Under the pieces are notes generated by a model. The model was not told the DNA's origin and searched no databases. It saw only the letters and a list, made by a program, of their open reading frames with translations. Positions 4,724 through 60,482 of a DNA stretch of 64,000 nt are shown here, piece after piece. This DNA is from Dehalococcoidia bacterium. GTDB lineage: Bacteria > Chloroflexota > Dehalococcoidia > Bin125. How positions within the stretch are numbered: the stretch's first letter is position 1; the number at the start of each line of letters is the position of its first letter. The position numbers and the translations under genes were made by a program. Where the stretch lies: positions 6,468 through 70,467 of the forward strand of contig JAJDXE010000015.1 in assembly GCA_022825265.1 (NCBI GenBank), given 5' to 3'.

Positions 4724-4728
4724 CGCCG

Positions 4729-5798
<1,070 letters not shown>

Positions 5799-8607: not shown

Positions 8608-10728
8608 GTGAGTGCGGGAATGACCGGGCGAGGCCCGCGCCGTACACGGTTGACGGCGATGATCGCTGCCGCCGCCCTGCTGGTGGCGGCGGCTGGCGCG
8701 TTCGTGCCATGGCGCGCTAATCCTGTGTCGGCCGAGGAGTTCAATCCCGTCGTCCGCAGCGGCGCCATTGACGGCCCGCTCGACGTCGATTGGTTCGTGC
8801 TGTTCGCGCTGGCAGGCGAGAGCTACGCCATCTCGCTGGAGCGCAACACACTGTTGGCGGGTGAAATTACCATCTGGAAGCCGGCGACTGACGAATCGGA
8901 TGCGCGCATCGTCGCGCGGTCGTCCGGTCTCGATGTTCCCCTGATTTGGACGGCGCCCGAGAGTGGCGCCTGGCGAGCGCAAGTCTCGGGAGTAAGGGGC
9001 GCGACGGGGTCCTATCGGCTACGGATCCGCAACCACACCGATGCCATCGGCTCTGACCTCGCAACGGCCAAGCTGGGCGCGTACGACGAACGCGGGGTGC
9101 TGATCGAACGATCGGCGATCGACAACGCCGGGGACGCCGATTGGTTCGCCTTTCCCGTGGCCTCCGGGAACCGCTACCGGATTTGGTCGGTACTCGGATC
9201 TGTGACCGGACTGTCGGCGGCCATCCGCCTGCCCGGACAGAATTCGTTTCGCGAACTGGACCGTTATGGGAACTCCTTCAGCGACGCGATCGAGCCCGCC
9301 GAAGGAGGCTTGGCCGTGCTCGAGGTGAGAGCCTCTCAGGCATGGTTCATGGGTAGCTACGCCTTCGGGATTACGCGCTCGGGGGTAGAGCAGGAGCCGG
9401 AAGTCAGCCTGCCGACTCGTCAGATGCCGCGCTTGCAAATCGAATCGATCATCGGAGCGGAATCTGGCCGAACGGCTCAGTTCTCATTCCAGGGGGAATG
9501 GGGACCGATCCGTCAGAACAGTGGCCTCCGCGTCTGGATCGACATCGATCCGGGAATGGACGAGCATGAGCAAGACGAGTGGGAATTTCTCCTGTGTTCC
9601 AACGACGGCCGCAACGCCCGGCTGTGGTCCTTTGAGCAAGGGGCCTGGATCGAAACCAGCCAGGTCAGTGCCAGCGGGTTCGACACGCTGGTGATGCGCT
9701 GGTCGGGCCGGACGTCAGACCAGCAAATTCGCTGGCAGGCGAGCGTCAAGAACTGGGATGGGAGCTGGACCGTCTCGCGTCCCAGTCTGCTCGAGATCCC
9801 GGATCCCCAACCGCCGAACCCGAATCTCTGGCTTGCCCGCCAGCGGACGGGCGCTGAAGACCCGCGCTGGCAAGCCGAGTTGGAGGAAGCCGGCGTCATC
9901 CCGGGACTGGATGACGAAGCAATCGTGGTCGTTCTCGATGCCGGTCACGGCGTCGATACCGGCGCTTGGGATAACGGGGTCAAGGAAGAGGACTCGAACC
10001 TCGCGTTTGCGTTGAGAATCGAGGAGATGTTGGAAGCCGAAGGTGTCACGGTCGTCCAGACCCGGCGCTCGACCGACCGACCGTTCCTCAATCTCGACGA
10101 AGCGCTCTGGCGCGCGGATTACCAGGCGCGAGCGGAAATGGCCCATCTGGCCAGAGCCGACGTGTTCGTATCGATCCACTCCAACGCCAACTTCATGTTT
10201 CCGATCAACGGACTCGAGGCCTGGTACCTGCCTCGCTGGAACGGCGACGGCCTCAACCTGAAGCTGGCCGAAACCCTGCTTTCTCACATTCAGCAGGCAC
10301 TGGCGGATTACGGATATCGGACTGCCACCCTGACCTACGACTCATCCTGTTGGGAGCTGGTCAACGGCGCCTGCGATCCGATCTACGTCCTGGCGCCGTT
10401 CCTGTTGATGGATGCCAGCGTTGCCCGTCAATGGGACCTGGATCCCGCCGGACTGGGTCTGTCTGAGGATCCTTGGGACGTGGCGATCAACGACTGGCTC
10501 TGGCGCAACGACATTACCGTTGGCGAGCCCCCGATTGACCTGATCGATCCCGAGACGCAGTCAGGACCGGGTCGGATCGTGCGCGCCAACCTGATGCCGA
10601 CCACCTTGCTCGAGCTCCTCTATGTCACGCATGAGGCCGACGCCGGGATTCTGCGCGATCCGCAGGCGCGAGAAGTGATCGCCAGGGCAATCGCCGACGG
10701 AATCCTGGAGTTCCTCGACCTCGAGTGA
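8608..10728 (+). CDS. secreted N-acetylmuramoyl-L-alanine amidase (Amidase_3) domain protein with N-terminal repeated beta domains
   Basis: Signal-peptide-like N-terminus. Two repeats of DWF(V/A)...Y.I resembling pre-peptidase C-terminal (PPC) domains. C-terminal Amidase_3 block VVVLDAGHG...VSIHSNA. Confidence 0.8.
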   Translation: MSAGMTGRGPRRTRLTAMIAAAALLVAAAGAFVPWRANPVSAEEFNPVVRSGAIDGPLDVDWFVLFALAGESYAISLERNTLLAGEITIWKPATDESDARIVARSSGLDVPLIWTAPESGAWRAQVSGVRGATGSYRLRIRNHTDAIGSDLATAKLGAYDERGVLIERSAIDNAGDADWFAFPVASGNRYRIWSVLGSVTGLSAAIRLPGQNSFRELDRYGNSFSDAIEPAEGGLAVLEVRASQAWFMGSYAFGITRSGVEQEPEVSLPTRQMPRLQIESIIGAESGRTAQFSFQGEWGPIRQNSGLRVWIDIDPGMDEHEQDEWEFLLCSNDGRNARLWSFEQGAWIETSQVSASGFDTLVMRWSGRTSDQQIRWQASVKNWDGSWTVSRPSLLEIPDPQPPNPNLWLARQRTGAEDPRWQAELEEAGVIPGLDDEAIVVVLDAGHGVDTGAWDNGVKEEDSNLAFALRIEEMLEAEGVTVVQTRRSTDRPFLNLDEALWRADYQARAEMAHLARADVFVSIHSNANFMFPINGLEAWYLPRWNGDGLNLKLAETLLSHIQQALADYGYRTATLTYDSSCWELVNGACDPIYVLAPFLLMDASVARQWDLDPAGLGLSEDPWDVAINDWLWRNDITVGEPPIDLIDPETQSGPGRIVRANLMPTTLLELLYVTHEADAGILRDPQAREVIARAIADGILEFLDLE

Positions 10729-10939
10729 GACGCAGCCGCGGCGCAACTGCGTCGCCGGCGACGCTCGACCTGTCGCGCCAGATGCAGACTCAATCCCGAC
10801 GACTGCTCTGATACTCGTTGGCTGTGACCTCGTCAACTTGTGATTTCTGTCGCCCGAACGCCGAACCGGACGCCGACTTAAGGTCAGTTCAGAACGAAAC
10901 GCCCGGTGTGTTTCGACGGGATTCAGAGAGGCGGTCGAG

Positions 10940-11431
10940 ATGTCCGACGCAGCGATCCACGAAGCAACGTTCGCCACGGCAGCGATTCCCGACATCATGG
11001 TCGATCGGCAGCAGATCTACCCCTACCTGACCTACGCCGACGCCCCGGCCGCGATCGACTGGCTCTGCCGCGTCTTCGGCTTCGAGCTGGGCAGCGCCTA
11101 CTCGGTGGCCGACGGCCGCATCGCGCACGCGGTGCTGCAATACGACGGGCTGTTCGTCATGCTCTCGTCGGAGCTCGATCAGCTCAACAACCACGCCCCG
11201 AACGGCGAGGCGCTCGCGACCTCGCGGGTCCACATGCACGTCCATGAAATCGAGGAACACTACCAGCGGGCGCTGACGGAAGGCGCCACGATCGTCCAGG
11301 GTCTACAGGATCGGTTCTGGGGCCTGCGCTCGTATCACGCGCTCGACCTCGAAGGCTATCGCTGGAGCTTCTGCCAGCGCATACGCGAAGTGCCGCGCGA
11401 GGAGGTCGACCATCAACTCCGGACCTGGTAG
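10940..11431 (+). CDS. VOC family (glyoxalase/PhnB-like, PF06983-type) protein, paralog 1 of 5
   Basis: Motif YPYLTYADAPAAIDWLCRVFGF, typical of PhnB-like VOC proteins. Confidence 0.8.
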   Translation: MSDAAIHEATFATAAIPDIMVDRQQIYPYLTYADAPAAIDWLCRVFGFELGSAYSVADGRIAHAVLQYDGLFVMLSSELDQLNNHAPNGEALATSRVHMHVHEIEEHYQRALTEGATIVQGLQDRFWGLRSYHALDLEGYRWSFCQRIREVPREEVDHQLRTW

Positions 11432-11490: not shown

Positions 11491-11551
11491 GAACATATAT
11501 GCGCTAACCTTGGGCCTGTACCCGCTCGACGCAATGAGAGGCCTGCTGGCA

Positions 11552-12022
11552 ATGTCGGACCCCGTGGAACTCGGTCACCAGCGGATCGTGCCCGCCCTGA
11601 CCTATGCCGACGCGCCCGCGGCGATCGACTGGCTATGCCGTGTCTTCGGTTTTACCGAAGTCCGCCGCATGGAGGTCGGAGACGGCCGCATCGGCAACGC
11701 CGCGCTCAGCTTCCAGGGCGAACAGATCATGCTCACCTCCCCCTTCGACGAAGCCGGCACGCGCTCGCCTCGTGATCTGTCGGCGCTGCATCAGCAGATC
11801 ACCGTTCACGTGGACGACGTCGACGCCCACTTCGAGCACGCGCGCAGCGAGGGAGCCGAGATCCTGGCGGAGCCGGAAGACCAGTTCTGGGGAGCACGTT
11901 CCTACTGGGTCCAGGACCTCGAAGGCCACCGTTGGACCTTCCAACAGCAGCTCCGCGTCGTTCCCGACGAGGAGTCGGCCGCCCAGATGCGCAAGATCGC
12001 AAGTCGGGAGGCGCCGCCATGA
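11552..12022 (+). CDS. VOC family (PhnB-like) protein, paralog 2 of 5
   Basis: Start chosen at MSDPVELGHQRIVPALTY by alignment with paralogs. Shares the exact YADAPAAIDWLCRVFGF block with paralog 1. Confidence 0.75.
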   Translation: MSDPVELGHQRIVPALTYADAPAAIDWLCRVFGFTEVRRMEVGDGRIGNAALSFQGEQIMLTSPFDEAGTRSPRDLSALHQQITVHVDDVDAHFEHARSEGAEILAEPEDQFWGARSYWVQDLEGHRWTFQQQLRVVPDEESAAQMRKIASREAPP

Positions 12023-12209
12023 TCGCCCTGGACAGCCTGAACTCATCTGAACTCGCCTGAACCGGGCTGGAGAAACCTGAACGAACCTGAACGCTCTGAA
12101 CGCACGATCTCCAGCAATACACGGCACTTCCGCGTTTGGAGCCCAGCAAAAAAAGTTCACCCTGAACACTGCCTGAACACCACCGGAACGCAACGAAAGG
12201 ACAGCGATC
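12023..12209. repeat. intergenic repeat cassette: CTGAAC direct-repeat array, a roughly 65-nt module (CGCACGATCTCCAGCAATAC...A7), then three more CTGAAC-type units at 11-nt spacing
   Basis: cctgaactcat/ctgaactcgc/ctgaacc...cctgaacgaa/cctgaacgct/ctgaacgcacgatctccagcaatac...cagcaaaaaaag...ctgaacactgc/ctgaacaccac/cggaacgcaac. Homologous copies occur at 48685-49030. Confidence 0.6.
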
Positions 12210-12677
12210 ATGGTTCAGAATCCACCGGAGGGCAATCAGCGGGTCATCCCCTACCTCGCGTACGCCGACGCTCCGGCGGCGGTCGAGTTTCTCTGCCGCG
12301 CCTACGGCTTCGAAGCCGGTGTGCAGATGGACATGGGCGACGGCGTCCTGGGACACGCCGAGTTGCATCTCGACGACAACGTCGTCTTCCTCGCCACCGC
12401 CTTTGATGAAATCGGCCTGGCCAGCCCTCAGAATCTCAGCGCCGTGCATGGACAGGTGATGGTCTACGTCGACGACGTGGACGACCACTACGCCAAGGCC
12501 AAAGCGGCCGGCGCCGAGATCACCGAGGAGATCGCCGATCAGTTCTACGGCGACCGCAGCTATCGCACCGTCGATCCTGAGGGGCACCAATGGGTCTTCA
12601 CGCAGCACATGCGCGACGTCTCGCCCGAGGAACTCGAAGCAGCGGCCGCCGCGATGGCTGAAGGAGCGGGCGAATGA
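12210..12677 (+). CDS. VOC family (PhnB-like) protein, paralog 3 of 5
   Basis: VIPYLAYADAPAAVEFLCRAYGF. Confidence 0.8.
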   Translation: MVQNPPEGNQRVIPYLAYADAPAAVEFLCRAYGFEAGVQMDMGDGVLGHAELHLDDNVVFLATAFDEIGLASPQNLSAVHGQVMVYVDDVDDHYAKAKAAGAEITEEIADQFYGDRSYRTVDPEGHQWVFTQHMRDVSPEELEAAAAAMAEGAGE

Positions 12678-13141
12678 CGGAGCAACCGGATCTCTCCGCC
12701 GGTCGCCGGCAACGCATCGTGCCGGCGCTGTCCTATGACGACGCGCCGGCCATGATCGAGTTTCTCTGCCGCGCCTTCGGCTTCGTCGAGCGTTTCCGCC
12801 TCGACATGCCGGATGGCAGCATCGGCCACGCCTCGCTGGTCAGCGGCGAGGACGAGCTGACCCTGGCCTCGGCCTATCCGGAAGGCGGGCTCGGCGGACC
12901 AAGCGGCTTGCCGCACTTGCACGCGAGCGTGATGGTCTACGTCGACGACGTTGACGCCCATTACGAACGAGCCCTGGCCGAGGGCGCCACGATTCTGCAG
13001 GAGCCGGAGGACCAGTTCTACGGTGATCGCGTCTATCGTGCAGCCGACCCTGAGGGCGGGCGATGGTGGTTCCACCAGGAACTGCAACAGGTCACCAGTG
13101 AACAGATGCAAGCGGCCATCGACGACATGACCGACGAATAG
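12674..13141 (+). CDS. VOC family (PhnB-like) protein, paralog 4 of 5
   Basis: IVPALSYDDAPAMIEFLCRAFGF. 4-nt ATGA overlap with paralog 3. Confidence 0.8.
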   Translation: MTEQPDLSAGRRQRIVPALSYDDAPAMIEFLCRAFGFVERFRLDMPDGSIGHASLVSGEDELTLASAYPEGGLGGPSGLPHLHASVMVYVDDVDAHYERALAEGATILQEPEDQFYGDRVYRAADPEGGRWWFHQELQQVTSEQMQAAIDDMTDE

Positions 13142-13152
13142 AGCGCTGCCCC

Positions 13153-13623
13153 ATGGGCGAAGTCCCGCTGCCGCACGGTTCGCAGCACATCGTGCCCTAC
13201 GTCTACTACGACGATCCGCGCGCGGCGACCGATTACCTCTGCGATGTCTTCGGTTTCGAACCCTTGATGGCGCTGGAGTGGCCCGACGGCCGGGTGGCTC
13301 ACGCAGAGGTGGGAATGTCGGGTGAGCGTGTACTGATCGGCGGCGCAGACGCGCGGTTCGGTTTGGCCAGCGCGAAAGCGAACCAGGCCGTTCACACGGT
13401 GATCTGCGTGTACGTCGCCGACGTTGACGCGCACTACCAGCACGCCAGAGAGCGTGGCGCCGAGATTGTCCGAGAGATCACCGATGCCTTCTACGGCTCG
13501 CGAATCTACTCGGCCAGAGATCTGGAGGGCCATCTCTGGGAGTTCCGTCAACACCGCAGCGAGCCAACCGAGCAGGAGCTGACCCAGTCTCTGGCCGAGC
13601 TCGCGCGGATGATCGGCCGCTGA
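13153..13623 (+). CDS. VOC family (PhnB-like) protein, paralog 5 of 5
   Basis: IVPYVYYDDPRAATDYLCDVFGF. Confidence 0.8.
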   Translation: MGEVPLPHGSQHIVPYVYYDDPRAATDYLCDVFGFEPLMALEWPDGRVAHAEVGMSGERVLIGGADARFGLASAKANQAVHTVICVYVADVDAHYQHARERGAEIVREITDAFYGSRIYSARDLEGHLWEFRQHRSEPTEQELTQSLAELARMIGR

Positions 13624-17529: not shown

Positions 17530-18357
17530 ATGCTGGAATCGTTGCGCATGGATGGCCGCCGAGTGATCGTCACCGGCGCCGGTCGAGGACTCGGCCGTCA
17601 AATGGCGTTGCACCTGGCCGACGCCGGCGCCGACATCGTCTGCGCGGCCCGGACACACTCGCAGATCGCCGCGGTCGCCGAGGAGATTGAGGCCAGGGGC
17701 CAGAGAGCACTGGTCATCCCGACCGACGTGAGCGACTCAGCCCAGGTCGACGCGATGGTCCAGCAGACGATCGCCGAGTGGGGCGGCTTTGAAGTGATGC
17801 TCGCCAACGCCGCCGCGAGCGGACCAGCCTCAATGAAGCATCTGACCGAGATCTCCGACGACGACTGGCGCGAGACCGTCGATCTCAACTTCTCCAGCGT
17901 CTTCTACAGCGCTCGAGCCGCAGTGCGGCATTTCCTCGCAGACCAGAAGCCAGGCAACATCATCACCGTTTCCTCGGGTACGTCCCTACGGGGAAGCGGC
18001 GCTCGGTTCTTTGTCGACGGCGCGGCCAAAGCCGGTGTGATCAACATGACGCAGTCGCTGGCGATTCAGCTCGCCCGCGACCAGATCCGCGTCAACTGCA
18101 TCGTCCCCGGCTTCATCCTGCAGAAGACGCTGGAAGATCAGGACGAGATTGAAGTGGCGCGCAACCAAGGCTCGCGGATTCCAATCGGACGCGTCGGCGA
18201 GGCCTGGGAACTCGGACCGTTGGCTGTCTACCTCGCCTCCGACGCATCCGCCTACATGACCGGCGAGGCGTTCATCATCGACGGCGGCGGCTTGGCGGGA
18301 GGTCTGGCGCCGTCCGGTTGGGACGTGCAGTCGGGAATCGGCGGCGTGCCCTCATGA
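17530..18357 (+). CDS. SDR family oxidoreductase
   Basis: TGAGRGLG Rossmann motif and a YxxxK-type catalytic region. Confidence 0.9.
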   Translation: MLESLRMDGRRVIVTGAGRGLGRQMALHLADAGADIVCAARTHSQIAAVAEEIEARGQRALVIPTDVSDSAQVDAMVQQTIAEWGGFEVMLANAAASGPASMKHLTEISDDDWRETVDLNFSSVFYSARAAVRHFLADQKPGNIITVSSGTSLRGSGARFFVDGAAKAGVINMTQSLAIQLARDQIRVNCIVPGFILQKTLEDQDEIEVARNQGSRIPIGRVGEAWELGPLAVYLASDASAYMTGEAFIIDGGGLAGGLAPSGWDVQSGIGGVPS

Positions 18358-19148
18358 GTCAACAGAATCCGCTCACGCCGCCCGAAGTTGGCGAAGGCAA
18401 GATCCAGGGATTCGACCTCACTGACCGGCGGGTGATCGTCTATGGCGCTGAGAAGCCGGTCGCGACGGCAATCGTCGAGGGCCTGCGAGAAGCAGGCGCG
18501 GGTGTCGGCGTGACCAGCGTGAACACCGATGGGACCTCGTTGTTCCGCTTGAAGAAGGCGGGTGGCAACGGGCCGACCGAGGCAGTCGAACTCGGCAACG
18601 GAACCAACGTGCAGGTCGCGACCCGCAAGATCAGCAAGGAACTCGGCGGCGTCGACGCGGCGATCGTGGTTCCCAACCTCTATCACGCCGCCCCGATTCG
18701 CAAGACGCTCGACGCCGACATCCAGCGGGTGCTGATGGGCAATTTGGGCGGGACGTATGCAGCGTTCCGCAGCGCCACCCGAGAGTTTCGAGGACGGCCG
18801 GGTCGGTTAATCGCGGTACTGGACGCCACGGCGGTGAGGGGTTTGACCAACCTCAGCATCTACAGCGCGGCGCACTCTGGCGTGATCGGTCTTGTGCGAG
18901 CGCTGAGCCAGGAGCTGGCGCCAACCGGAACGACGGTCAACGCGATTGTGGTCGGCTGGACCGATTCCACGCCCGGTCGCGGACCATCGGCGGTCGATGA
19001 GAACCTGCTGCTCCGCTTCATCCCCATGCGCCGCTTCGGTGAGGCCGCCGATCCCGCCCCGCTCGCGGTCTACCTGGCCTCGGAAGCGAGCGGCTACATC
19101 ACCGGCCAGGTCATCCAGGTCGACGGCGGGGTGCTCAAGCACCTGTAG
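18354..19148 (+). CDS. SDR-like oxidoreductase (enoyl-ACP reductase-like)
   Basis: Start at MSQQNPL, overlapping the upstream SDR stop (ATGA). Atypical Gly motif VIVYGAEKPVATA and an SDR core. Confidence 0.75.
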   Translation: MSQQNPLTPPEVGEGKIQGFDLTDRRVIVYGAEKPVATAIVEGLREAGAGVGVTSVNTDGTSLFRLKKAGGNGPTEAVELGNGTNVQVATRKISKELGGVDAAIVVPNLYHAAPIRKTLDADIQRVLMGNLGGTYAAFRSATREFRGRPGRLIAVLDATAVRGLTNLSIYSAAHSGVIGLVRALSQELAPTGTTVNAIVVGWTDSTPGRGPSAVDENLLLRFIPMRRFGEAADPAPLAVYLASEASGYITGQVIQVDGGVLKHL

Positions 19149-19175
19149 GGCCGCGTATCCCTTGTCTGCGATACC

Positions 19176-19218
19176 GTGAACACAAAGGAACGGAGATATC
19201 ATTTGTGTTCACGGATAC
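19176..19218. promoter_or_regulatory. perfect 13-bp inverted repeat CCGTGAACACAAA-N15-TTTGTGTTCACGG in an AT-rich spacer upstream of fic (candidate operator or terminator)
   Basis: Seen directly. The flanks carry GATACC on both sides. The surrounding 120 nt are far more AT-rich than the rest of the window. Confidence 0.4.
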
Positions 19219-19274
19219 CAAAGCAAATGATATGAGCTAACCTTTGTCTTCAGGAAGCGGGAGACAACGGATCC

Positions 19275-20486
19275 ATGCGCGGCGCACTTGTCCATCGAGT
19301 CTGGCAGCCCAGGACGGACACCCTCGCGCCGCGACGCTTTCGCCGACCGTGCGACTACGCGGCGTTCATCCCGGACGCGCTCGACGATGTCGCCTTCCGG
19401 CTGCCGGTCGATCTTGCCGCCGATCTGGCGGACGCGGAAGCCACGCTGCAGCGTCTGCAATATCCCGACGATCGGTTGCTCGACCCGCTCACCCATCTGC
19501 TGATGCGCAGCGAGTCGATCGCGTCTTCACGAATCGAAGGCATCCAGCTCGATGCCCGCGCGCTCGCCCGCGCCGAGGCGAGGCGGCGCGTCGGTCGGCG
19601 AGTCGGTTCGCGGGCAAGGGAAGTGATCGGCAACGTCGAGGCGATGCAGCTCGCGATCGGGCGCGCGGCGGCGGTGGAACGACTGGGTCCGCGCGAGTTG
19701 CTCGACATCCACGAGGTGCTCATGCGCGGCCACCTGCGGACGGCGGGGCAGCTGCGCACGGTGCAGAACTGGATCGGCGGCAACGACTACAACCCGTGCG
19801 GCGCCGACTTCGTGCCTCCGCCGCCCGAGCAGGTGCCGGCTCTGATTGAGAACCTGTGCGAGTTCTGCAACTCCGACCAGACGCCGCCGCTGTTTCAGGC
19901 GGCGGTTGCGCACGCGCAGTTCGAGACGATTCACCCCTTTGACGACGGCAACGGACGCACCGGGCGGGCGCTGATCCATATCCTCTTGCGCCGCCGCGGG
20001 CTGGCCCCGCGCGTGACGCCGCCGGTCAGCGTGGCGCTCTCCCACGCCGGGGACGCCTACATCCGAGGACTGACTTCGTACCGCGACGACAACCTCGTAG
20101 AGTGGCTCGGCACACTCGCCGTGGCTGTCCTGAGCAGCGTGGCGCTGGCCGAGCGATATCGGACCTCCGTCGCCGAACTGGCGGCAGACTGGCGGCAGCG
20201 GCTACGCGATCGCGCGAATCCCCGTGCGGACGCCGCCGCCTGGCTCATCCTCGATCAACTTCCCGCTTACCCCGTCCTGAATCGGGCCGACGCAGCGGAG
20301 TTCAGCGGTCGCTCGCTGCCGGCGGTCGATCACGGCCTGCGGCAACTCGAGGCCGCCGGCGTCCTCGTCCCGATTCATGATCAGCCGCCCAGCCGCCGCA
20401 GCTGGGAGCCGTCGGGACTGCTCGATCTGATCATCCGGCTCGACTCACAGCCGACGTTCGGCCGCCGTGTCGGACTAGTCCCCTAG
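19275..20486 (+). CDS. fic: Fic family protein (class II, with N-terminal inhibitory helix motif and C-terminal winged-helix region)
   Basis: Fic core HPFDDGNGRTGRAL. Upstream SSRIEG fits the (S/T)xxxE(G/N) autoinhibitory motif. Confidence 0.9.
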   Translation: MRGALVHRVWQPRTDTLAPRRFRRPCDYAAFIPDALDDVAFRLPVDLAADLADAEATLQRLQYPDDRLLDPLTHLLMRSESIASSRIEGIQLDARALARAEARRRVGRRVGSRAREVIGNVEAMQLAIGRAAAVERLGPRELLDIHEVLMRGHLRTAGQLRTVQNWIGGNDYNPCGADFVPPPPEQVPALIENLCEFCNSDQTPPLFQAAVAHAQFETIHPFDDGNGRTGRALIHILLRRRGLAPRVTPPVSVALSHAGDAYIRGLTSYRDDNLVEWLGTLAVAVLSSVALAERYRTSVAELAADWRQRLRDRANPRADAAAWLILDQLPAYPVLNRADAAEFSGRSLPAVDHGLRQLEAAGVLVPIHDQPPSRRSWEPSGLLDLIIRLDSQPTFGRRVGLVP

Positions 20487-46741: not shown

Positions 46742-48037
46742 TCAGCCGCCGTTCGCCGCCCGATGGAACGCCCGACCCAGACGCTCCGCCGCGTCCTCGA
46801 GCACCTTCGTCGGCGGCCATGAGTAGGCCAGCCGCACCGACTGGCCGTCGTCGCCCGGGTCGCCCGAGGGATAGAAGCGGTTGCCCGAGGCGAAACTCAG
46901 CCCGTCCTCGGCGGCGAAGTCCCGCACCGCGTCCGCGTTCAGACCGTTGCGCAGCTTGAGCCAGAGGAAGAACCCGCCGGACGGCTCGATCACGTCGAAG
47001 TAGGGCTCGCCGTACGGTTCCAGCGCCCCCGCCAGGGTCTGAGCCTTGAGCGCATACAGCCGCCGCATCTGGTCGACGTGCTCGTGGAAGTTGCCGCGCA
47101 CCATGTACTCGTGCAGCATCCGATGCAGCAGCGGGCTGTTGCCCATGTCGAAGCGGGCCGGCACCATCGCCTGGATCCAGTCCGGGCGAGCCTGCACCCA
47201 ACCGACCCGCAGTCCGGTCGCGATCACCTTCGAGAACGTGCCCACCGTCAGCACGCCGTAGCCGTCGGTCAGCTCCGACAGGGTGGGCGGCGGCGGACCC
47301 TCGAAATACAGCTCCGAGTAGGCGTGATCCTCCATCAGCAGCACCCGCTTGCGAGCCGCCAGCTCGATCAGGTCGAGCCGCCGTTGCAGCGTCATCGTCA
47401 GGCCGGTCGGATTGTGGAACGTGGGCTGCGTGTAGATCAGCTTGACCGTGCGCCCCTCCGACTCCAGCCGATCGATCGTCGACTCAAGCTCGTCCAGCTT
47501 CAACCCCTCGTCGTCCATCCCCACGCCCACGACATCCGCCTGCTTGCCTCGCATCGTCCGCAATGAGCCAGCGAACGTCGGAATCTCCGTGATCACCACG
47601 TCGCCCGGGTCGAGGAACGCGGCGCAGATCGACTCGATCGCCCCCGCCGCGCCGTTGGTCATCAGGAACCAACTCGGGTCGGGCTGCGCCGGATGATTGC
47701 GCGCGAAGTACTGCGCGATCTCGTGCCGCAGCGGCTCGTACCCCTGCGGTCCGCCGTAGACCAGCGGCGCATCGCCCGGCTGCGCCAGCACACGCTCCAT
47801 CGCCGCCAGCAACTCCGCCCGAGGCTGCGTGTCCGCGTCCGGAATCCCGCCGCCCAGCGAGATTGGCGGCAGCGTGCTCGCCCGCGCCCGCTCCGACAGC
47901 CCCCAGGCCGTCGCGTTGCCCGCTTCCATCTTCCTCGTCGCCGCGTTCGCCGTGTGCAGCGCGGGGAAGCTGTCCCACGCGTCGCGAGCCGCATCGGCCG
48001 CGCGGCTGCTGATCGGTGCAAGCGGTTCAGACATCAT
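46742..48037 (-). CDS. PLP-dependent aminotransferase (class I/II fold)
   Basis: SKVIATGLRVGW pyridoxal-lysine region and the fold pattern. Confidence 0.85.
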   Translation of the reverse strand: MMSEPLAPISSRAADAARDAWDSFPALHTANAATRKMEAGNATAWGLSERARASTLPPISLGGGIPDADTQPRAELLAAMERVLAQPGDAPLVYGGPQGYEPLRHEIAQYFARNHPAQPDPSWFLMTNGAAGAIESICAAFLDPGDVVITEIPTFAGSLRTMRGKQADVVGVGMDDEGLKLDELESTIDRLESEGRTVKLIYTQPTFHNPTGLTMTLQRRLDLIELAARKRVLLMEDHAYSELYFEGPPPPTLSELTDGYGVLTVGTFSKVIATGLRVGWVQARPDWIQAMVPARFDMGNSPLLHRMLHEYMVRGNFHEHVDQMRRLYALKAQTLAGALEPYGEPYFDVIEPSGGFFLWLKLRNGLNADAVRDFAAEDGLSFASGNRFYPSGDPGDDGQSVRLAYSWPPTKVLEDAAERLGRAFHRAANGG

Positions 48038-48149
48038 CGTCTCCAGACCTGTCGCCCAAGGCGTGAACGTTCAGCTTATGCGACAACCCCTCCCCAAGTT
48101 CCCGTCCAGTCTTGTTGTAGGGGCGCCCCAAAAGATCGATTCCGGATCA

Positions 48150-48250
48150 CTGAAGACCTCCCCTTCCCATTTCCTCCCCCTCTGCGGGAGCCTGCCCCGC
48201 ACTTGATGCGGGGGTGCCGCGATGCGGCGGAGGGGGCCGCCCGACATCGG
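48150..48250. repeat. GC-rich REP-like multi-hairpin element (AAGACCTCCCC...CTCCCCCTCTGCGGGAG...CCCCGCACTTGATGCGGGG...GCGGAGGGGGCC)
   Basis: Collinear with the 36961-37080 copy, with insertions. Confidence 0.55.
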
Positions 48251-48684
48251 CAACCATCACCAAACAGCCGACAGATCCACACCCTTCCCCTTCCGATCCC
48301 CCGCGCCCCGACACGGGGCCCAGAGCACCCAACCCCGCTAGGACAACACCGTCCGCCTCACTGCAACCCGCCGCAACCCCTCCCTCCCCATTCCCCGCTT
48401 CATGGGAGGACCCGCTCCATCTTCGACCAAGAGACAACAGCACACTTCAACTTGTCATCTGAGCAACTCCCAACCCTCCACCGTCGCTCGACAAGCCAGG
48501 AACCAACAATGTACGTTTGTACGACCTAACGCGACCGGCCACGAGAGATCGTATGTCCAACATCTGCCGCCTACCTGACCGCCTGACCGGCACGCATCCC
48601 GCTGCGCATCCGGCAAGCCCGGCAAACAATGCACAAAATCCGCGTTCGACCGAAAAAACCAGCACCAAACTGTCAGAAATTGCA

Positions 48685-49030
48685 CCCCCGAATCGCACGA
48701 TCTCCAGCAATACGCTGGACTTCGCCCTCGCTTCCGCCTCAGACAAAAAAACTCGCCGATACCGCGCTGGTGTCGCTCGGACCACCCGCTCCAGCGTGGC
48801 CCGGAATCGAACAAAACCGAACAGGCCTGCCCCCGACTTGATCGCGGGACCGAACGCCCCGGCGGTCAGGTCGGCCTGAACGATCCTGAACGAAGCTGAA
48901 CGATCCTGACCGATCTGAACGCACGATCTCCCGTAAAACACTGGAAATCGTGATCAGCGAACCGGAGAAGAAAAATCGGGCTGAACACCTCAACACCTGA
49001 ACACCTGAACACCTGAACACCTGAACGGCA
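48685..49030. repeat. two copies of the roughly 65-nt module (CGCACGATCTCCAGCAATAC...A7 and CGCACGATCTCC...A5) interleaved with CTGAAC arrays, ending in 4x perfect ACACCTGAAC 10-mers about 36 nt before the LLM gene start
   Basis: Direct comparison with 12023-12209. TAGGAT (-10-like) lies 12 nt before the ATG at 49066. Confidence 0.6.
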
Positions 49031-49065
49031 CAGTCGCCCGCGCGACCCCGCTGTAGGATCGTCCC

Positions 49066-50109
49066 ATGCCTTCCGACATCCGACTCGGCGTGCTCGATCA
49101 AATTCCCATCCGCGACGGCGGCACCGCCGCCACCGCGATCTCCGAGACCTTCGAGCTGGCCGAAACTTGCGACCGGCTCGGCTACTCGCGTTACTGGCTG
49201 GCCGAGCATCACAACGCCGGCTCGCTGGCCTGCGCCTCGCCCGAGGTACTGATCCCCCAGGTCGCCTGGCGCACCTCTCAGATCCGCGTCGGCTCGGGCG
49301 GGATCATGCTGCCCCACTACAGCTCGCTCAAAGTGGCCGAGAACTTTCGCACGATGACGACCCAGTTCCCCGGCCGGATCGACCTCGGTGTCGGCCGCGC
49401 CCCCGGCTCCGACGGGCGCACCGCGCGAGCGCTGGTGCATGGACCCGGCGCGCTCGGGATCGACCATTTCCCCGAGCAACTGCTCGACCTGTACGGCTGG
49501 CTGGCCGACGACCTGCCGCCCGACCACCAGTACCGCGAAGTCCGAGCCGCGCCGCCCGGCGCGCCGATGCCCGAGCTCTGGTTGCTCGGCTCCTCGCACT
49601 ACGGCGGGCACGTTGCCGCCGAGCTCGGCTGGTCGCACTGTTTCGCCCACTTCATCTCGCCCGAAGGTGGCGAGCAGGTCGTGCGCAAGTACCGAGAACG
49701 TTTCCAGCCCTCGCCGGTCAGCTCCGAGCCGCGAGCCTCGCTGGGCGTCTCGGTCACCGTCGCCGAGACCGACGAAGAGGCGGAACAGCTCTGCTGGAGC
49801 CGCTGGTGCTGGCGGATCAAGGGCAATCGCGGCGCGCGCGGAGGCATCCCCTCGGTCGAGGAAGCGATGAACTTTCCCTATTCCCAGCCCGAGCTCGACT
49901 ACATCGGCTACATGCAGAACCGCAGCATCCACGGCTCGCCGCAGCGCGTCCGCGAGAAGCTCGAGCAACTGGCCAGGGCCTACGACGTGGACGAGTTCAT
50001 CGCGCTCACGATCACCTACGATTTCGCTGCCCGCATCCGCTCCTACGAACTGCTCGCCGACGTCTTCGAGCTGCCCCGCCCCGAACTCAGTCAAGCGCTG
50101 GCTGACTGA
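49066..50109 (+). CDS. LLM class flavin-dependent oxidoreductase
   Basis: Luciferase-like pattern (YWLAEHH...GGIMLPHYSSLKVAE). Confidence 0.85.
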   Translation: MPSDIRLGVLDQIPIRDGGTAATAISETFELAETCDRLGYSRYWLAEHHNAGSLACASPEVLIPQVAWRTSQIRVGSGGIMLPHYSSLKVAENFRTMTTQFPGRIDLGVGRAPGSDGRTARALVHGPGALGIDHFPEQLLDLYGWLADDLPPDHQYREVRAAPPGAPMPELWLLGSSHYGGHVAAELGWSHCFAHFISPEGGEQVVRKYRERFQPSPVSSEPRASLGVSVTVAETDEEAEQLCWSRWCWRIKGNRGARGGIPSVEEAMNFPYSQPELDYIGYMQNRSIHGSPQRVREKLEQLARAYDVDEFIALTITYDFAARIRSYELLADVFELPRPELSQALAD

Positions 50110-51514
50110 GCAGCGGCGCCGGATCCAGCCCCGCCTCGCTCAAAATGTCGGCTGTAATCCGTTGAGCGATCACATAGCCAGAGTCGTCGCGGCCCTCAAC
50201 CAGCACCGTCAGAAACGGCGTCGTGTTGGATGCGCGGATCACGCACCAGGCGCCTTCCGCCTGACTTGAGAGATCAATTCGAGCGCCGTCAATCTCATTC
50301 ACGGGCCACCGTGCCCGTGCTGTCTTGGCGATCTCCGCAGCGACGCGGTGCTTGCGCTCGTCGGAACAAGCAATCTTGACCTCCGGCGAAATGCAATAGC
50401 GGGGAACAGAGTCCAGAATCGGTTCAAGCGGGCTTCGTGACGCCATCTGAGCAACGCGACAGGCCGTGCGCACGGCGTCGTCGGTGATGTGCGGCGGATC
50501 ATCGACGCGGTAGAAGTAGTGAGTCGACGCCTCGCCGCCAAACCCGATCCCGCGCTCCCGCATCACATACTTGCCCAGCGAGTGTCCGACCGGTCCAACG
50601 CGCGCCCGACCGCCCAGTTGCGTGATGTGGTCGATCACCGCCTGCGAAGTCTTGACGTCGATGTGGATCGAAGCACCGGGATGCAGCGCCAACCAGTCCT
50701 GCGCCAGCAGCGCCAGAACCTGATCGGGCGTAGCTCTGCGTCCCCGACCGTCAACCAGACCCAGCCGGTCGCCGTCGCCATCGAAGGCGAACCCGACATC
50801 TGCGCCCGAGTCGGACACGAACGACGCCAGCTGCGCGACATTCCGGGCGTGTTGCGGGTCAGCGGGGTGGGCTATCTCGGTCTCCTCCGGATCATCGTTG
50901 ATCGACAACACCTCGCAGCCGATCGCCCGCAACGCTGTCGCCGCAGTCACAGTCGCGGCGCCGTTGCCGGGATCGATGGCGACCTGCAACGGACGCCGCA
51001 ATCGAAACGACTCAGCCAGGCTGCGAACGTAGGCCGGCCTCGGGCTCCACAGCGTTCGCTTGCCTTGACGCTTGGCGACGGTAACTCCCGATGCCACAAG
51101 GTCGGCGACCGACTGGATCTGTTCCGGCGAGAACGGCATGGCATCGGTGTGGAGCAGCTTGATCCCGTTGTCGTCGGGAGGGTTGTGCGACGCGGTGACG
51201 ACGAGTCCGGCCGTGAGCCGCTCCTGGGTCAGCAAGGCCGTGGTCCAGTAGACCAACGGCGACGGCGCGCGGCCAATGTCGACGACGTCCAGGCCGGCAT
51301 CGAGCAGCCCGGCGATGGCGGCCTGCTGGAGCGCCGGTGTGGAGCGTCGGAGATCGCCGCCGACCACGACCTGCTCGGTTGACTTGACCAGCTCGGCAAA
51401 GGCCAACCCGGCTCGAAGCGCCAGATCCGGCGTCAGCGGCGCGTCGCTGCCGATGGCCCGCCCGCGGATGTCGTAGGCGCGAAAGATCTCGCGAGGAATC
51501 GGCGAATCGCTCAT
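50087..51514 (-). CDS. phosphomannomutase/phosphoglucomutase (alpha-D-phosphohexomutase family)
   Basis: Active-site TASHNPPDDNGIKL, a metal-binding DGDGDR loop, and an N-terminal FRAYDIRG. Confidence 0.9.
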   Translation of the reverse strand: MSDSPIPREIFRAYDIRGRAIGSDAPLTPDLALRAGLAFAELVKSTEQVVVGGDLRRSTPALQQAAIAGLLDAGLDVVDIGRAPSPLVYWTTALLTQERLTAGLVVTASHNPPDDNGIKLLHTDAMPFSPEQIQSVADLVASGVTVAKRQGKRTLWSPRPAYVRSLAESFRLRRPLQVAIDPGNGAATVTAATALRAIGCEVLSINDDPEETEIAHPADPQHARNVAQLASFVSDSGADVGFAFDGDGDRLGLVDGRGRRATPDQVLALLAQDWLALHPGASIHIDVKTSQAVIDHITQLGGRARVGPVGHSLGKYVMRERGIGFGGEASTHYFYRVDDPPHITDDAVRTACRVAQMASRSPLEPILDSVPRYCISPEVKIACSDERKHRVAAEIAKTARARWPVNEIDGARIDLSSQAEGAWCVIRASNTTPFLTVLVEGRDDSGYVIAQRITADILSEAGLDPAPLLSQPALD

Positions 51515-51533
51515 CGATCATTACCCTACGTCC

Positions 51534-52214
51534 ATGCCGCTCGAAGTCTCGGATATCGACCTCCAACGAACCCTGTTCCGCTTCTTAACCAAGTCGGCGC
51601 GCAAGGGCGAACTCGCAGACCCGGCGGCGGCCGAGCAGCGATTCCCAGCCGCTGCCGGGGCGGTCGACCTGTCGGCGATTGCCGATGGCATGCAGACAAG
51701 GCTGTCCGCGATGTACCCCGACGCTCCCGACCTGCGCGGGCTGTTAGGAGGCGCGTCGGACGACGAACTGCGCGCGATGCAGGCCTTCGACTGGGTCACG
51801 ATCGGGATCTACACCTTCGGCCTCCCACCGACCAAGACCCGCTCCGGCACCCGCGAGAGTTCGGCCCATCGCGCACTCAAGGAATGGGCAGCGTCGAACG
51901 GAGCTGCGCTGGGCGCGCCGGCCGACTCGGTCGGCGTCACCGAGCGCTGGTTCCCGTCCGGCGACGAATCGGACGCCGCCTTCCTTGGCAAAACCGAGTC
52001 CTTGATCGTTGAGGTCCGTCCTCAGGGAACCGAGCCGCACGAGCTCCAGCAAGCTGTGTTCACGCTGGTCAAGATGCGAGCGGTCCGTCGAGCCGAGTCG
52101 TCGCTGGACGGTCGAGACGATGACGTTCGCGTGACTCTGGTCGTCGAAGAAGAGCCGGGCGCTGCGACTCGCGAATTGGCCGAGGAGCTGGGCGTCGCCG
52201 TCTACGTCAGATAA
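51534..52214 (+). CDS. hypothetical protein
   Basis: 226-aa ORF between the two phosphohexomutase paralogs. No family recognised. Confidence 0.45.
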   Translation: MPLEVSDIDLQRTLFRFLTKSARKGELADPAAAEQRFPAAAGAVDLSAIADGMQTRLSAMYPDAPDLRGLLGGASDDELRAMQAFDWVTIGIYTFGLPPTKTRSGTRESSAHRALKEWAASNGAALGAPADSVGVTERWFPSGDESDAAFLGKTESLIVEVRPQGTEPHELQQAVFTLVKMRAVRRAESSLDGRDDDVRVTLVVEEEPGAATRELAEELGVAVYVR

Positions 52215-59383: not shown

Positions 59384-59406
59384 GGTTTACTTCGACTTAC
59401 TTCGAC

Positions 59407-59817
59407 TTACTCGGTTGAAGCCAGCGGGTCGTAGGTGCCGAAGTGCCAGAAGTTGCCTTCGGGGTCGCGGACCGTGAACGCGTGCGAACCGTAGTCGGTG
59501 TCTTCGAGCGGGAATGCGACGGGGGCGCCCGCATCCTGGGCTCGTTGGTACAGCTCGTCGACCTGTTCGTTCGACTCAGCAGTCAAGCTGACGGATGCCT
59601 TGCCGATCGACTCGTTCAGCGGGTCGTCCTCGCCGCGGGCTGATCCGAGCATGACCAGGCTGCCGCGCCATTCCAACTCGGCGTGGGCGAGGCCGCCGTT
59701 GCCGTCGGGCACGATCATCCTCTCGGTGAAGCCGAACGTGTTGCGCAGCCACTCGATCAGCGCCTGGGCGTCGTCGGCGCGGAATGCGGGAATGATTGTC
59801 TGGTGTGCCATGTGCAA
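59407..59817 (-). CDS. VOC family (glyoxalase/bleomycin-resistance fold) protein
   Basis: TDYGSHAFTVRDPEGNFWHFGTY C-terminus. Paralog of 59829-60224. Confidence 0.8.
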   Translation of the reverse strand: MHMAHQTIIPAFRADDAQALIEWLRNTFGFTERMIVPDGNGGLAHAELEWRGSLVMLGSARGEDDPLNESIGKASVSLTAESNEQVDELYQRAQDAGAPVAFPLEDTDYGSHAFTVRDPEGNFWHFGTYDPLASTE

Positions 59818-59828
59818 TCTCGCGAGTC

Positions 59829-60224
59829 CTATTCCTCGGCCAGGGCGTCGTAGGTGCCCAGATGCCAGTGGTTGCCTTCGTAATCTTCGACGGTGAAGGC
59901 GTGGGAGCCGTAATCGGTGTCGGTCAGGGGTTGGATCACTTTGACGCCGGCCGCGACGGCGTTGGCGTAGACCTCGTCGACCTGCTCCGCCGACTCGGCA
60001 GTCAGGCTCAGCGAACCGTGTTGATGCGGCAGGTCGTGGGCGTCGCCCTGCAGGTCGCCGAGCATGACCAGGGAGCCTCGAAAGGCCATCTGGGCGTGCT
60101 CCACGCGTCCGTCCTCATTGCGGACGACGAAGTGCTCGGTGAAGCCGAAGGTGTCCTGCATCCACTTGATGGCGCGGTTGGAGTCGACGTAGCGCAGCGA
60201 GGGAACGATGGTTTGGTGGGGCAT
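59829..60224 (-). CDS. VOC family (glyoxalase/bleomycin-resistance fold) protein
   Basis: TDYGSHAFTVEDYEGNHWHLGTY. Tandem paralog. Confidence 0.8.
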   Translation of the reverse strand: MPHQTIVPSLRYVDSNRAIKWMQDTFGFTEHFVVRNEDGRVEHAQMAFRGSLVMLGDLQGDAHDLPHQHGSLSLTAESAEQVDEVYANAVAAGVKVIQPLTDTDYGSHAFTVEDYEGNHWHLGTYDALAEE

Positions 60225-60482
60225 GGACGGATCCTCTCGTTATGTGCCGGGGAATTGCACGATTCCCTGTGTTTTGCAGGGGATCGTGGGTTCTGCGCGT
60301 TCGGGTTTGATCGGATTTGATCGGATTTGTTCGGAAAAGTTCCGATTATGTATCGCCTTTTGCGAGGGATATTCGGAGTTTGTCGAGCGTGTTCGACGCC
60401 GGTTGACGAGGAAGGGAAAAGGGCTCATGTCGTCACCAGTGCAGAGCTGGAGATAGATTGCCTGTTCGTGATTATCACGCTA

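Follow-up and report, generated by a model that had tools for sequence, protein, structure and literature searches.

What is the short repeated module that precedes a flavin-dependent oxidoreductase gene in a Dehalococcoidia bacterium, and what might it do there? The window, as the whole stretch of DNA analysed here is called, comprises 64,000 nucleotides of contig JAJDXE010000015.1 (assembly GCA_022825265.1). Two copies of the module, B1 and B2, lie upstream of a gene of the LLM (luciferase-like) family, and further copies are found near 12 and 60 kb. An earlier note on this DNA, made from the letters alone, had placed an activator on repeats next to B2, where it would substitute for the −35 element of the LLM promoter. 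Comparison with related loci (designated L001, L002 and so on) reveals that the units belong to a small modular element, not described before, of uncultured bacteria of the Dehalococcoidia type. The element is gained and lost as a block immediately in front of detoxification and oxidation genes, and its B2 core is under purifying selection. Our preferred, though tentative, reading is that the unit is a transcribed cis-acting leader or intercistronic element that is bound by a candidate trans-acting factor.

Anatomy of the repeat unit

A profile built from the copies identified four units in the window (Table 1). Three of them, B1, B2 and the 12 kb unit, are collinear on the plus strand, in agreement with the earlier note. 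The fourth, which had been described as a degenerate sequence at about 60 kb, exists as well, but on the minus strand: the 'GCACGATTCCCTG' read there is the reverse complement of the right hairpin arm, and the '3x GGATTTGATC' that of the upstream array. The repeat motif is clearly enriched in the window, with 15 occurrences of CCTGAAC against 6.2±2.8 expected (none of 100 shuffles reached 15) and four of GAAC-N6-GAAC-N6-GAAC against 0.27 expected.

An alignment of 16 copies, to which one further diverged unit adds for a total of 17, divides the unit into three parts: a phased CYGAAC array, a hairpin core, and an A-run with a second, CTGAAC array. The core is 37 nt long and has the consensus GAAC[G/C]CACGATC[T/C]CC-NGY-AAAAC-ACNGG-N2-3-TCG, in which the left arm and the loop are nearly invariant. 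It is predicted to fold into an imperfect 13-pair hairpin with an AAAAC loop, a structure that is predicted in most copies with z-scores of single copies down to −6. In the alignment, 69% of the cells of the 13-pair hairpin are paired, compared with 23–48% in slid controls, and where T13 is changed to C, column 29 or 30 has acquired a G.

The upstream array is held in a strict register. GAAC-type motifs are located at exactly −9, −19, −29 and −39 (and −49, −59) from the core GAAC in nine copies, with a fixed 9-bp junction to the core and free of insertions or deletions across some 45 unit junctions. Within and between loci, the 10-mers (consensus cC[T/C]GAAC[G/A]A[A/T]) have diverged in their interiors while the register is kept, and C(−2), G(0) and A(+1) are almost invariant. 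The repeats previously noticed 5' of B2 are indeed such an array (period 10, 4.8 copies in a tandem-repeat call spanning 48875–48921). The 12 kb unit has seven in-register positions (six CTGAAC and one CTGGAG), and B1 is without an intact upstream array.

On the 3' side, the core is followed by a variable stretch of about 15 nt and by the A-run (GAAAAAATTC-like), with the A-tract about 50 bp from the core start, and the first CTGAAC appears at +64 to +67. The arrays that it opens have periods of 7, 8, 11 or 12, and their copy number differs among close relatives: period 8 with 5.8 copies at B2 and two copies in L008, period 7 with six copies in L022 and five in L023 from the same sample, and period 12 with about three copies in L003. 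In the 12 kb unit, the core (12098–12134) and an A7 run (12148–12154) precede two copies of CCTGAACA with a period of 11. The 'four perfect ACACCTGAAC 10-mers' reported between B2 and the LLM gene overlap one another by 2 nt, and dissolve into overlapping readings of the CTGAACAC array of period 8. Slippage polymorphism is visible in natural populations, as L022 carries six and L023 five CCTGAAA units at 9900–9950 within one sample; the A-run of the unit is A7 in L028 and A8 in L029–31 (about 9975).

The sense strand of the unit contains 30% A, 34% C, 22% G and 14% T, compared with 32% G in the genome, and the plus strand of the island that holds B1 and B2 is likewise A/C-rich and G/T-poor (GC skew to −0.44, AT skew to +0.39). 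Three subfamilies can be distinguished, namely GAACG.., GAACC.. with a 40-nt insert, and the B1 type. Profile matches of the B1 and B2 types occur as pairs, 226–305 nt apart, in the window, L003, L007, L008 and L010.

Table 1. Repeat units and features of the LLM, 12 kb and 60 kb loci in the window.
Feature	Position	Strand	Remarks
Unit B2	48917–48985	+	Profile match, E=1e-16
Unit B1	48692–48760	+	Profile match (nhmmer), E=3e-13
12 kb unit	12098–12166	+	Profile match, E=6e-12
60 kb unit	60293–60226	−	Profile match, E=1e-10
Left TGTAGG copy	48116–48121	+	Left insert edge; remnant of the ancestral LLM −10 ('gttgTAGGCT' in relatives), from comparison with L015 and L016
Inserted composite intergenic island, ~930 bp	48122–49051	+	Missing from the orthologous aminotransferase/LLM spacer of relatives
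GC-rich hairpin CCCCGCA-CTTGA-TGCGGGG	48195–48213	+	Second repeat family; related copies in L008, L001 and L006
Predicted sigma-70-like promoter block, P_up	48488–48517	+	TCGACA-N18-TACGTT within conserved GTACGTTTGTAC
B1 with decayed upstream array	48691–48760	+	GAATC for GAAC; A-run 48745–48751
B2 upstream array	48875–48916	+	CCTGAACGAT-type units, period 10, 9-nt junction to core GAAC (Tandem Repeats Finder, register analysis)
B2 core	48917–48953	+	GAACGCACGATCTCCCGTAAAACACTGGAAATCGTG; imperfect hairpin 48922–48952 with AAAAC loop (alignment, folding)
B2 variable spacer and A-run	48954–48980	+	AAAAA 48971–48975; 100% identical to L008
B2 downstream array	48981–49026	+	(CTGAACAC)x5.8, period 8, one mismatch; copy number variable
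Second TGTAGG copy	49052–49057	+	Right insert boundary
TAGGAT	49054–49059	+	−10 box of predicted leaderless LLM mRNA; older than the insert
LLM (luciferase-like) flavin-dependent oxidoreductase gene	49066–50109	+	Pfam PF00296, E=2e-31
12 kb unit with array	12036–12179	+	In the spacer between two VOC genes
60 kb unit with array	60226–60342	−	Array CCGA[A/T]CAAAT 60342–60294; core 60293–60257

Gain and loss at orthologous sites

Sites with and without the unit were found at three loci. The spacer between the aminotransferase and LLM genes measures 1028 bp in the window and holds the unit in L007 and L008 as well, whereas the unit-free spacers are 63–120 bp in L015–L019, with an LLM identity to the window of 80–92%, and 95 bp in L028–31. 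The spacer between the VOC genes at 12 kb comprises 187 nt in the window, and only 29 nt in L020/L021 and 12 nt in L024, which are devoid of the unit. The unit is present in L022/L023, with a VOC identity to the window of 87%, and absent from L020/L021, with 94%. Between the DsbH and VOC genes at 60 kb, the 258 nt of the window correspond to 11–15 nt in L032/L033, which lack the unit, and a diverged unit is found in L028–31. These filled and empty orthologous sites indicate that the unit is gained or lost as a block, arrays included, and in every case the downstream Shine-Dalgarno (SD) sequence or −10 box is left whole.

TGTAGG flanks the insert of the LLM locus on either side and may represent a 6-bp target duplication. 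It is confined to this locus; no clear target duplication was found at the 12 and 60 kb loci, and no terminal inverted repeats were found at the ends of the 930-bp insert or of the 12 kb unit. A 15-nt inverted repeat (48569/48861) was considered as a terminal repeat and discarded, as it is not conserved in L008. The copy number per genome is seemingly low, with no near-identical paralogous copies found. The earlier note had left the choice between a mobile element resembling miniature inverted-repeat transposable elements (MITEs) and a regulon operator to an alignment of the copies. The unit does come and go in whole blocks. The lack of terminal inverted repeats, the low copy number, the divergence of the copies and the selection on one of them (see below) mean that the element is neither a classical MITE nor a demonstrated operator.

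Selection on the B2 core

At fourfold-degenerate sites of the LLM gene, the window is 72% identical to L007 and 78% to L008. Given this divergence of 22–28%, the identity of the B2 core at 36 of 36 positions with L007 and 37 of 37 with L008 reveals that it is under purifying selection. The identical region in L008 extends over 76 nt around the core, and the segment from the −10 box to the ATG is also unchanged between the orthologues (15/15). The arrays and spacers, by contrast, drift. The B1 core, with 72–85% identity between orthologues, evolves at the neutral rate, the segment between the downstream array and the −10 box retains 46% identity, and the 5.8 array units of the window compare with two in L008 and two degenerate ones in L007. 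The selection on a resident copy counts against a purely selfish repeat devoid of function.

Promoters and transcription

The TAGGAT box stands 6 nt before the ATG at 49066, exactly as the first reading of the sequence had it. The gap that separates it from the downstream array is, however, 27 nt (49027–49053) and not 19, so that the array ends at about −40 relative to the ATG and does not lie over the −35 position. The arrangement tgTAGGCT/TAGGAT-N6-ATG is kept in L015 and L016, from which the whole insert is missing, and in L007 and L008. Because it is present in insert-free relatives, the LLM promoter must be older than the insert and independent of it. Of 133 genes called in the lineage (L014–L024, relatives and the contig of the window itself), 13 have TANNNT at a distance of exactly 6 nt upstream of the start, the insert-free LLM orthologues among them, and no other distance accounts for more than four; the boxes at distance 6 are mostly TAG[G/A]NT, and the UDG gene of L003 has TAGACT-N6-GTG. 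The preservation of the box in orthologues and the peak at distance 6 support the proposal that TAGGAT acts as the −10 box of a leaderless LLM mRNA, and leaderless mRNAs seem to be common in this lineage. No recognisable −35 element accompanies the LLM box. The TAGNNT box 6 nt before the ATG may aid the annotation of start sites and promoters in these metagenome-assembled genomes (MAGs).

A related arrangement was observed at 51512–51536, where 19 bp separate the divergent starts of a PGM-like gene (50087–51514, minus strand) and an open reading frame (ORF) of 226 amino acids (51534–52214, plus strand). TACCCT (51522–51527) lies 6 nt before the plus-strand ATG, and an overlapping TAGGGT on the opposite strand lies 8 nt before the minus-strand ATG. 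The region looks like a pair of bidirectional, overlapping −10 boxes serving two leaderless genes, and L016 has the same divergent arrangement.

A different promoter-like sequence is located upstream of the units. A T(T/C)GAC(A/T)-N17/18-TACGTT block (GTACGTTTGTAC) lies 169–202 nt upstream of the first unit at three independent loci (window/L008, L001 and L004), with looser equivalents in L003, L022 and the 60 kb locus. Its conservation between the window and L008 is about 95%, against 78% at fourfold sites, and it may function as a sigma-70-like promoter, here designated P_up. Inspection by eye, rather than a systematic scan, revealed no TANNNT between unit and start codon at the SD-led loci (12 kb, 60 kb, L001, L022 and L028), and a sigma-70 consensus scan returned no promoter inside the unit. 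Since the spacers that host the 12 and 60 kb units are operon junctions of 11–29 nt in relatives, these units must be transcribed with their operons. The operon-spacer sites, the co-orientation with genes, the A/C-rich and G-poor strand, the P_up block and the lack of TANNNT together make it likely that the unit is transcribed and exerts its effect in the leader or intercistronic RNA. An intrinsic terminator scan of 48000–49200 gave no site, the hairpin being followed by an A-run and not a U-run on the sense strand.

Several known signals were considered and rejected. By eye, neither the spacings of extracytoplasmic function (TGAAC-N16-CGT), sigma-54 (GG-N10-GC) and sigma-28 promoters nor a combination of the A-run as UP-element with CTGAAC as −35 fits across the copies. 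The LexA/Cheo box (GAAC-N4-GTTC) was dismissed, as only direct GAAC repeats without an inverted partner are present. A leader peptide or small protein running through B1 (ORF 48517–48879, internal ATG at 48553) was also rejected, because relative to L008 the frame is lost beyond ~48770 and most of the substitutions affect the second codon position, because the core is read in a different frame in L010, and because the T/G-poor composition by itself removes stop codons.

Distribution and downstream genes

The window corresponds to ENA ERZ23491399 scaffold_282. When one genome per species was scanned with a strict pattern, 10 loci emerged, with one or two matches per representative genome. Seven of the 10 belong to Dehalococcoidia/Chloroflexota MAGs, all with extended similarity; L002, L005 and L009 (proteobacterial, Coxiellaceae) share only the searched pattern and were set aside as chance matches. 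A metagenome scan added one duplicate and two further matches, L011 and L013, which are due to chance on the same grounds. No match to the unit was found in viral contigs, and a phage origin was rejected. All 17 units reside within Dehalococcoidia/Chloroflexota assemblies, and the paralogous copies of the window have only the core in common.

Each unit is co-oriented with an adjacent gene. The downstream genes encode VOC/glyoxalase-family proteins (two window loci, L022 and L028), LLM/F420-type oxidoreductases (window, L007, L008 and L001), a Rieske dioxygenase (L004) and a family-4 UDG (L003), and the units of L006 and L010 lie between convergent gene ends. The 60 kb unit stands upstream of minus-strand VOC-VOC-PNPOx genes, with the VOC genes at 60224–59829 and 59817–59407. 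Rfam gave no match at the gathering threshold in the 64 kb window, and searches with E≤10 at three loci produced only chance-level matches (E≥3.5). Neither a tRNA nor a tmRNA was detected by ARAGORN, and nothing relevant was found in the literature on intergenic repeats of SAR202 or Chloroflexi.

Models for the function of the unit

According to the reading that we favour, transcription of the unit would start either at the sigma-70-like block that precedes it or at the promoter of an operon that includes it. A trans-acting RNA-binding factor would recognise the core hairpin, and the spaced CYGAAC motifs would provide extra contacts for an oligomer of this factor, or for Rho, within flanks expected to be weakly structured because they are A/C-rich and G-poor. 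The VOC, LLM, Rieske and UDG genes would be placed under a common post-initiation control, exerted on read-through, termination or mRNA stability, and the LLM gene would keep its older leaderless TAGGAT promoter, with the unit upstream of that promoter and not part of it. The variable downstream periods and copy numbers are more easily tolerated in single-stranded RNA than on the face of a DNA helix, which favours an action at the RNA level.

Several observations weigh against this reading. The covariation score of the hairpin was reached by 182 of 500 shuffles and is not significant, a second hairpin (P2) around the A-run was rejected because it is predicted in only some copies and inconsistently, and in the 60 kb-type unit of L028–31 the left arm is replaced, so that the otherwise 'invariant' arm is lost. 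The exact 10-nt register from −9 to −59 in nine copies equals the helical repeat of DNA; in RNA it would make no obvious sense, unless the spacing were imposed by an oligomeric protein. A long transcript from P_up is not obviously useful for translation, because the LLM and UDG genes are predicted to be leaderless and have −10 boxes of their own. Rho is only one candidate factor, as the arrays are not enriched in C but rich in A and poor in G, and the stretch with the highest C content (48200–48500) is upstream of P_up.

In a more far-reaching version, which we regard as unlikely in its full form, the unit would represent a new class of cis-regulatory leader, in which the hairpin and the 10-nt-phased repeats form a portable, slippage-tuned platform on which an oligomeric RNA-binding regulator, or Rho, could dock. 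If true, such leaders would unite paralogous catabolic and detoxification genes (VOC, LLM, Rieske and UDG) in a single post-transcriptional regulon of uncultured Dehalococcoidia from the sea and from sponges. To our knowledge, gene regulation in uncultured Dehalococcoidia-type Chloroflexota is almost unexplored. Paralogous LLM, VOC and dioxygenase genes are numerous in these genomes, and a portable unit that comes and goes in front of such genes, and is under selection at a resident locus, would offer a handle on the differential control of such paralogues. The 37-nt core, with or without the arrays, would be a defined bait for the binding factor.

The most serious alternative, possible but rather doubtful in our view, is a DNA-level operator or upstream activating array, on which a direct-repeat-binding regulator (of the OmpR/PhoB winged-helix type or a ribbon-helix-helix protein) would polymerise along the 10-bp CYGAAC array. 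The regulator would also contact the imperfect palindrome and a bend at the A-tract, and would activate, repress or roadblock a nearby promoter. The exact 10-bp register with its 9-bp core junction in nine copies is the main support for such an operator, which would also account for a primary sequence that is highly conserved without significant covariation, for an A-tract placed about 50 bp from the core start, and for selection on a core that lies 82–150 bp upstream of the leaderless LLM promoter; VOC, LLM, PNPOx, UDG and Rieske proteins would make a plausible stress or detoxification regulon. This is difficult to reconcile with the five SD-led loci, at which no −10 box was seen between unit and start, with the position of the unit downstream of its own conserved promoter block, and with the units of L006 and L010 between convergent gene ends. 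Moreover, core and −10 box are 106, 137 or about 164 nt apart, depending on the locus, so that no constant helical phase is maintained, the downstream periods are 7, 8, 11 and 12, and the strand-asymmetric A/C-rich composition is superfluous for the binding of double-stranded DNA.

It appears improbable that the unit is a selfish interspersed repeat, resembling mycobacterial interspersed repetitive units (MIRUs) or BOX elements but without host function, with arrays that are slippage products and a gene association that merely marks tolerated insertion sites. Such a repeat would explain the filled and empty sites at three loci in combinations that differ by lineage, the subfamilies, the neutral drift of B1, the within-sample copy-number variation (L022 versus L023, and A7 versus A8), and the company of a second repeat family in islands inside which MAG contigs break. 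The complete conservation of the B2 core and the adjacent 76 nt at a fixed locus, in the face of 22–28% divergence at fourfold sites, argues against it, as do the low copy number without near-identical paralogues, the lack of terminal inverted repeats and the restriction of the possible 6-bp TGTAGG duplication to one locus. Even if the unit were only a selfish repeat, it would still explain the contig breaks and offer loci with variable numbers of tandem repeats for strain typing.

A site-specific recombination site of the attP or attI kind is very unlikely. Its resemblance to the unit lies in the architecture, that is, an inverted-repeat core with a 5-nt centre, CTGAAC direct repeats as arm-type sites and an A-tract bend, and a role in the gain and loss of adjacent VOC/LLM 'cassettes' would fit the presence/absence polymorphism of the unit, the two to four tandem VOC genes and the direct B1/B2 pairs. 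However, the flanking genes are syntenic with or without the unit, which indicates that it is the unit, and not the genes, that moves. Recombinant junctions were not observed, the integron attC signatures (RYYYAAC/GTTRRRY) are absent and CCTGAAC does not fit RYYYAAC, and no recombinase or integrase was present in the gene calls of L014, L020 and L028, the window not being annotated between 22 and 39 kb.

Least probable of all is the activator site proposed to substitute for the −35 element, which is largely refuted by the sequence comparisons: although the array does precede a genuine −10 box without a recognisable −35, its period is 8 and not 10, it ends 27 nt upstream of the box at −40, neither its copy number nor its sequence is conserved in orthologues, the same promoter occurs without any array in L015–L017, which are among the relatives with intergenic regions of 63–120 bp, and like arrays follow units at SD-led genes that have no such −10 box.

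Comparison with known systems

The operators of OmpR/PhoB regulators (Pho boxes, OmpR F1–F3) consist of head-to-tail direct repeats with a period of 10–11 bp and a short core, arranged in tandem upstream of genes, and TGAAC is the complement of GTTCA in the direct-repeat units of actinobacterial PHO boxes. The upstream array resembles these operators in all of these features, namely the direct repeats, their period, the short conserved core and the several tandem units upstream of genes. It differs in that no promoter element is found at the required distance downstream of the array, which instead lies downstream of the promoter block of the element itself, and in that the core is followed by a second array, the periods of which are not helical. 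The unit, in which a conserved linear sequence is followed by a hairpin with an A-rich pentaloop within a predicted leader or intercistronic transcript, also recalls the nut sites of phage lambda and other leader RNA elements with a protein-binding hairpin, which have a conserved linear sequence and then a short hairpin with an A-rich 5-nt loop. This likeness is by analogy only, as there is no sequence match to boxA or boxB and the flanking phased repeats have no counterpart; we know of no N-like or Nus-dependent system in this lineage.

Among described elements, the closest kinds appear to be MIRUs and the pneumococcal BOX elements, with which the unit has genomic behaviour in common, and not sequence, size or design. 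MIRUs were first seen in the operon of a two-component system (PMC3184786). As with MIRUs, the units are small, sit in operon spacers such as the VOC-VOC and DsbH-VOC spacers of the window, and are co-oriented and, as predicted here, co-transcribed with flanking genes; both have orthologous sites with and without a copy, as well as tandem copies that vary in number from strain to strain, and the L006 unit lies between histidine kinase and response regulator genes. They differ from MIRUs in the absence of any sequence similarity, in having a single-copy hairpin core flanked by repeats of 7–12 nt with the upstream array in strict register, and in a copy number that is seemingly far below the 40–50 per genome reported for MIRUs. 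Nor is there a conserved small ORF overlapping the flanking genes, as the window and L008 do not have a common frame and the substitutions are not biased to third positions.

The BOX elements of Streptococcus pneumoniae (boxA-boxB(n)-boxC) are likewise modular, with a variable tandem module, intergenic and restricted to a narrow lineage, and are transcribed with their neighbours, being thought to act through RNA structure on the co-transcribed genes (PMC3049150, PMC3184786). Their modules are 45–59 nt long, strongly structured and present in more than 100 copies, whereas the repeats described here are 7–12 nt long, the RNA is predicted to be mostly unstructured save for one hairpin, and one resident copy is under purifying selection.

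Neighbouring genes and a second repeat family

At the 12 kb locus, the number of tandem VOC paralogues ranges from two to four among close relatives (window 11510–13623; L020, L022 and L024 at ~9100–10950). A perfect tandem repeat, TTACTTCGAC x2.5, occupies 59387–59411 in the spacer between the PNPOx-like and second VOC genes. In L006 (2700–4089), a histidine kinase gene and an OmpR-type response regulator gene converge, and the space between their 3' ends holds a unit of the subfamily in which 40 nt are inserted between array and core. Near the syntenic region, L017 has an Eco57I-type restriction/modification gene (3030–5315) and L016 an N6/N4-methyltransferase-HNH gene (18048–19502). Eco57I-type enzymes recognise asymmetric hexamers, for example CTGAAG, which resembles the CTGAAC repeat.

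The intergenic islands also harbour a GC-rich hairpin, CCCCGYR-CTTGA-YRCGGGG, embedded in C-rich units, with a copy at 48296–48320 of the window in addition to that of Table 1. Related copies of the form CCCCGTG-CTTGA-CACGGGG occur four times in L008, where positions 1–440 consist of four tandem units of ~115 nt, six times in L001, and in L006 (about 3050–3090). The first 120 nt of L001 comprise six tandem 19-mers (TCCCCGTGCTTGACACGAG) with a TTGACA in each. The MAG contigs L001, L007, L008 and L010 start inside such islands, which suggests that assemblies break at these repeats.

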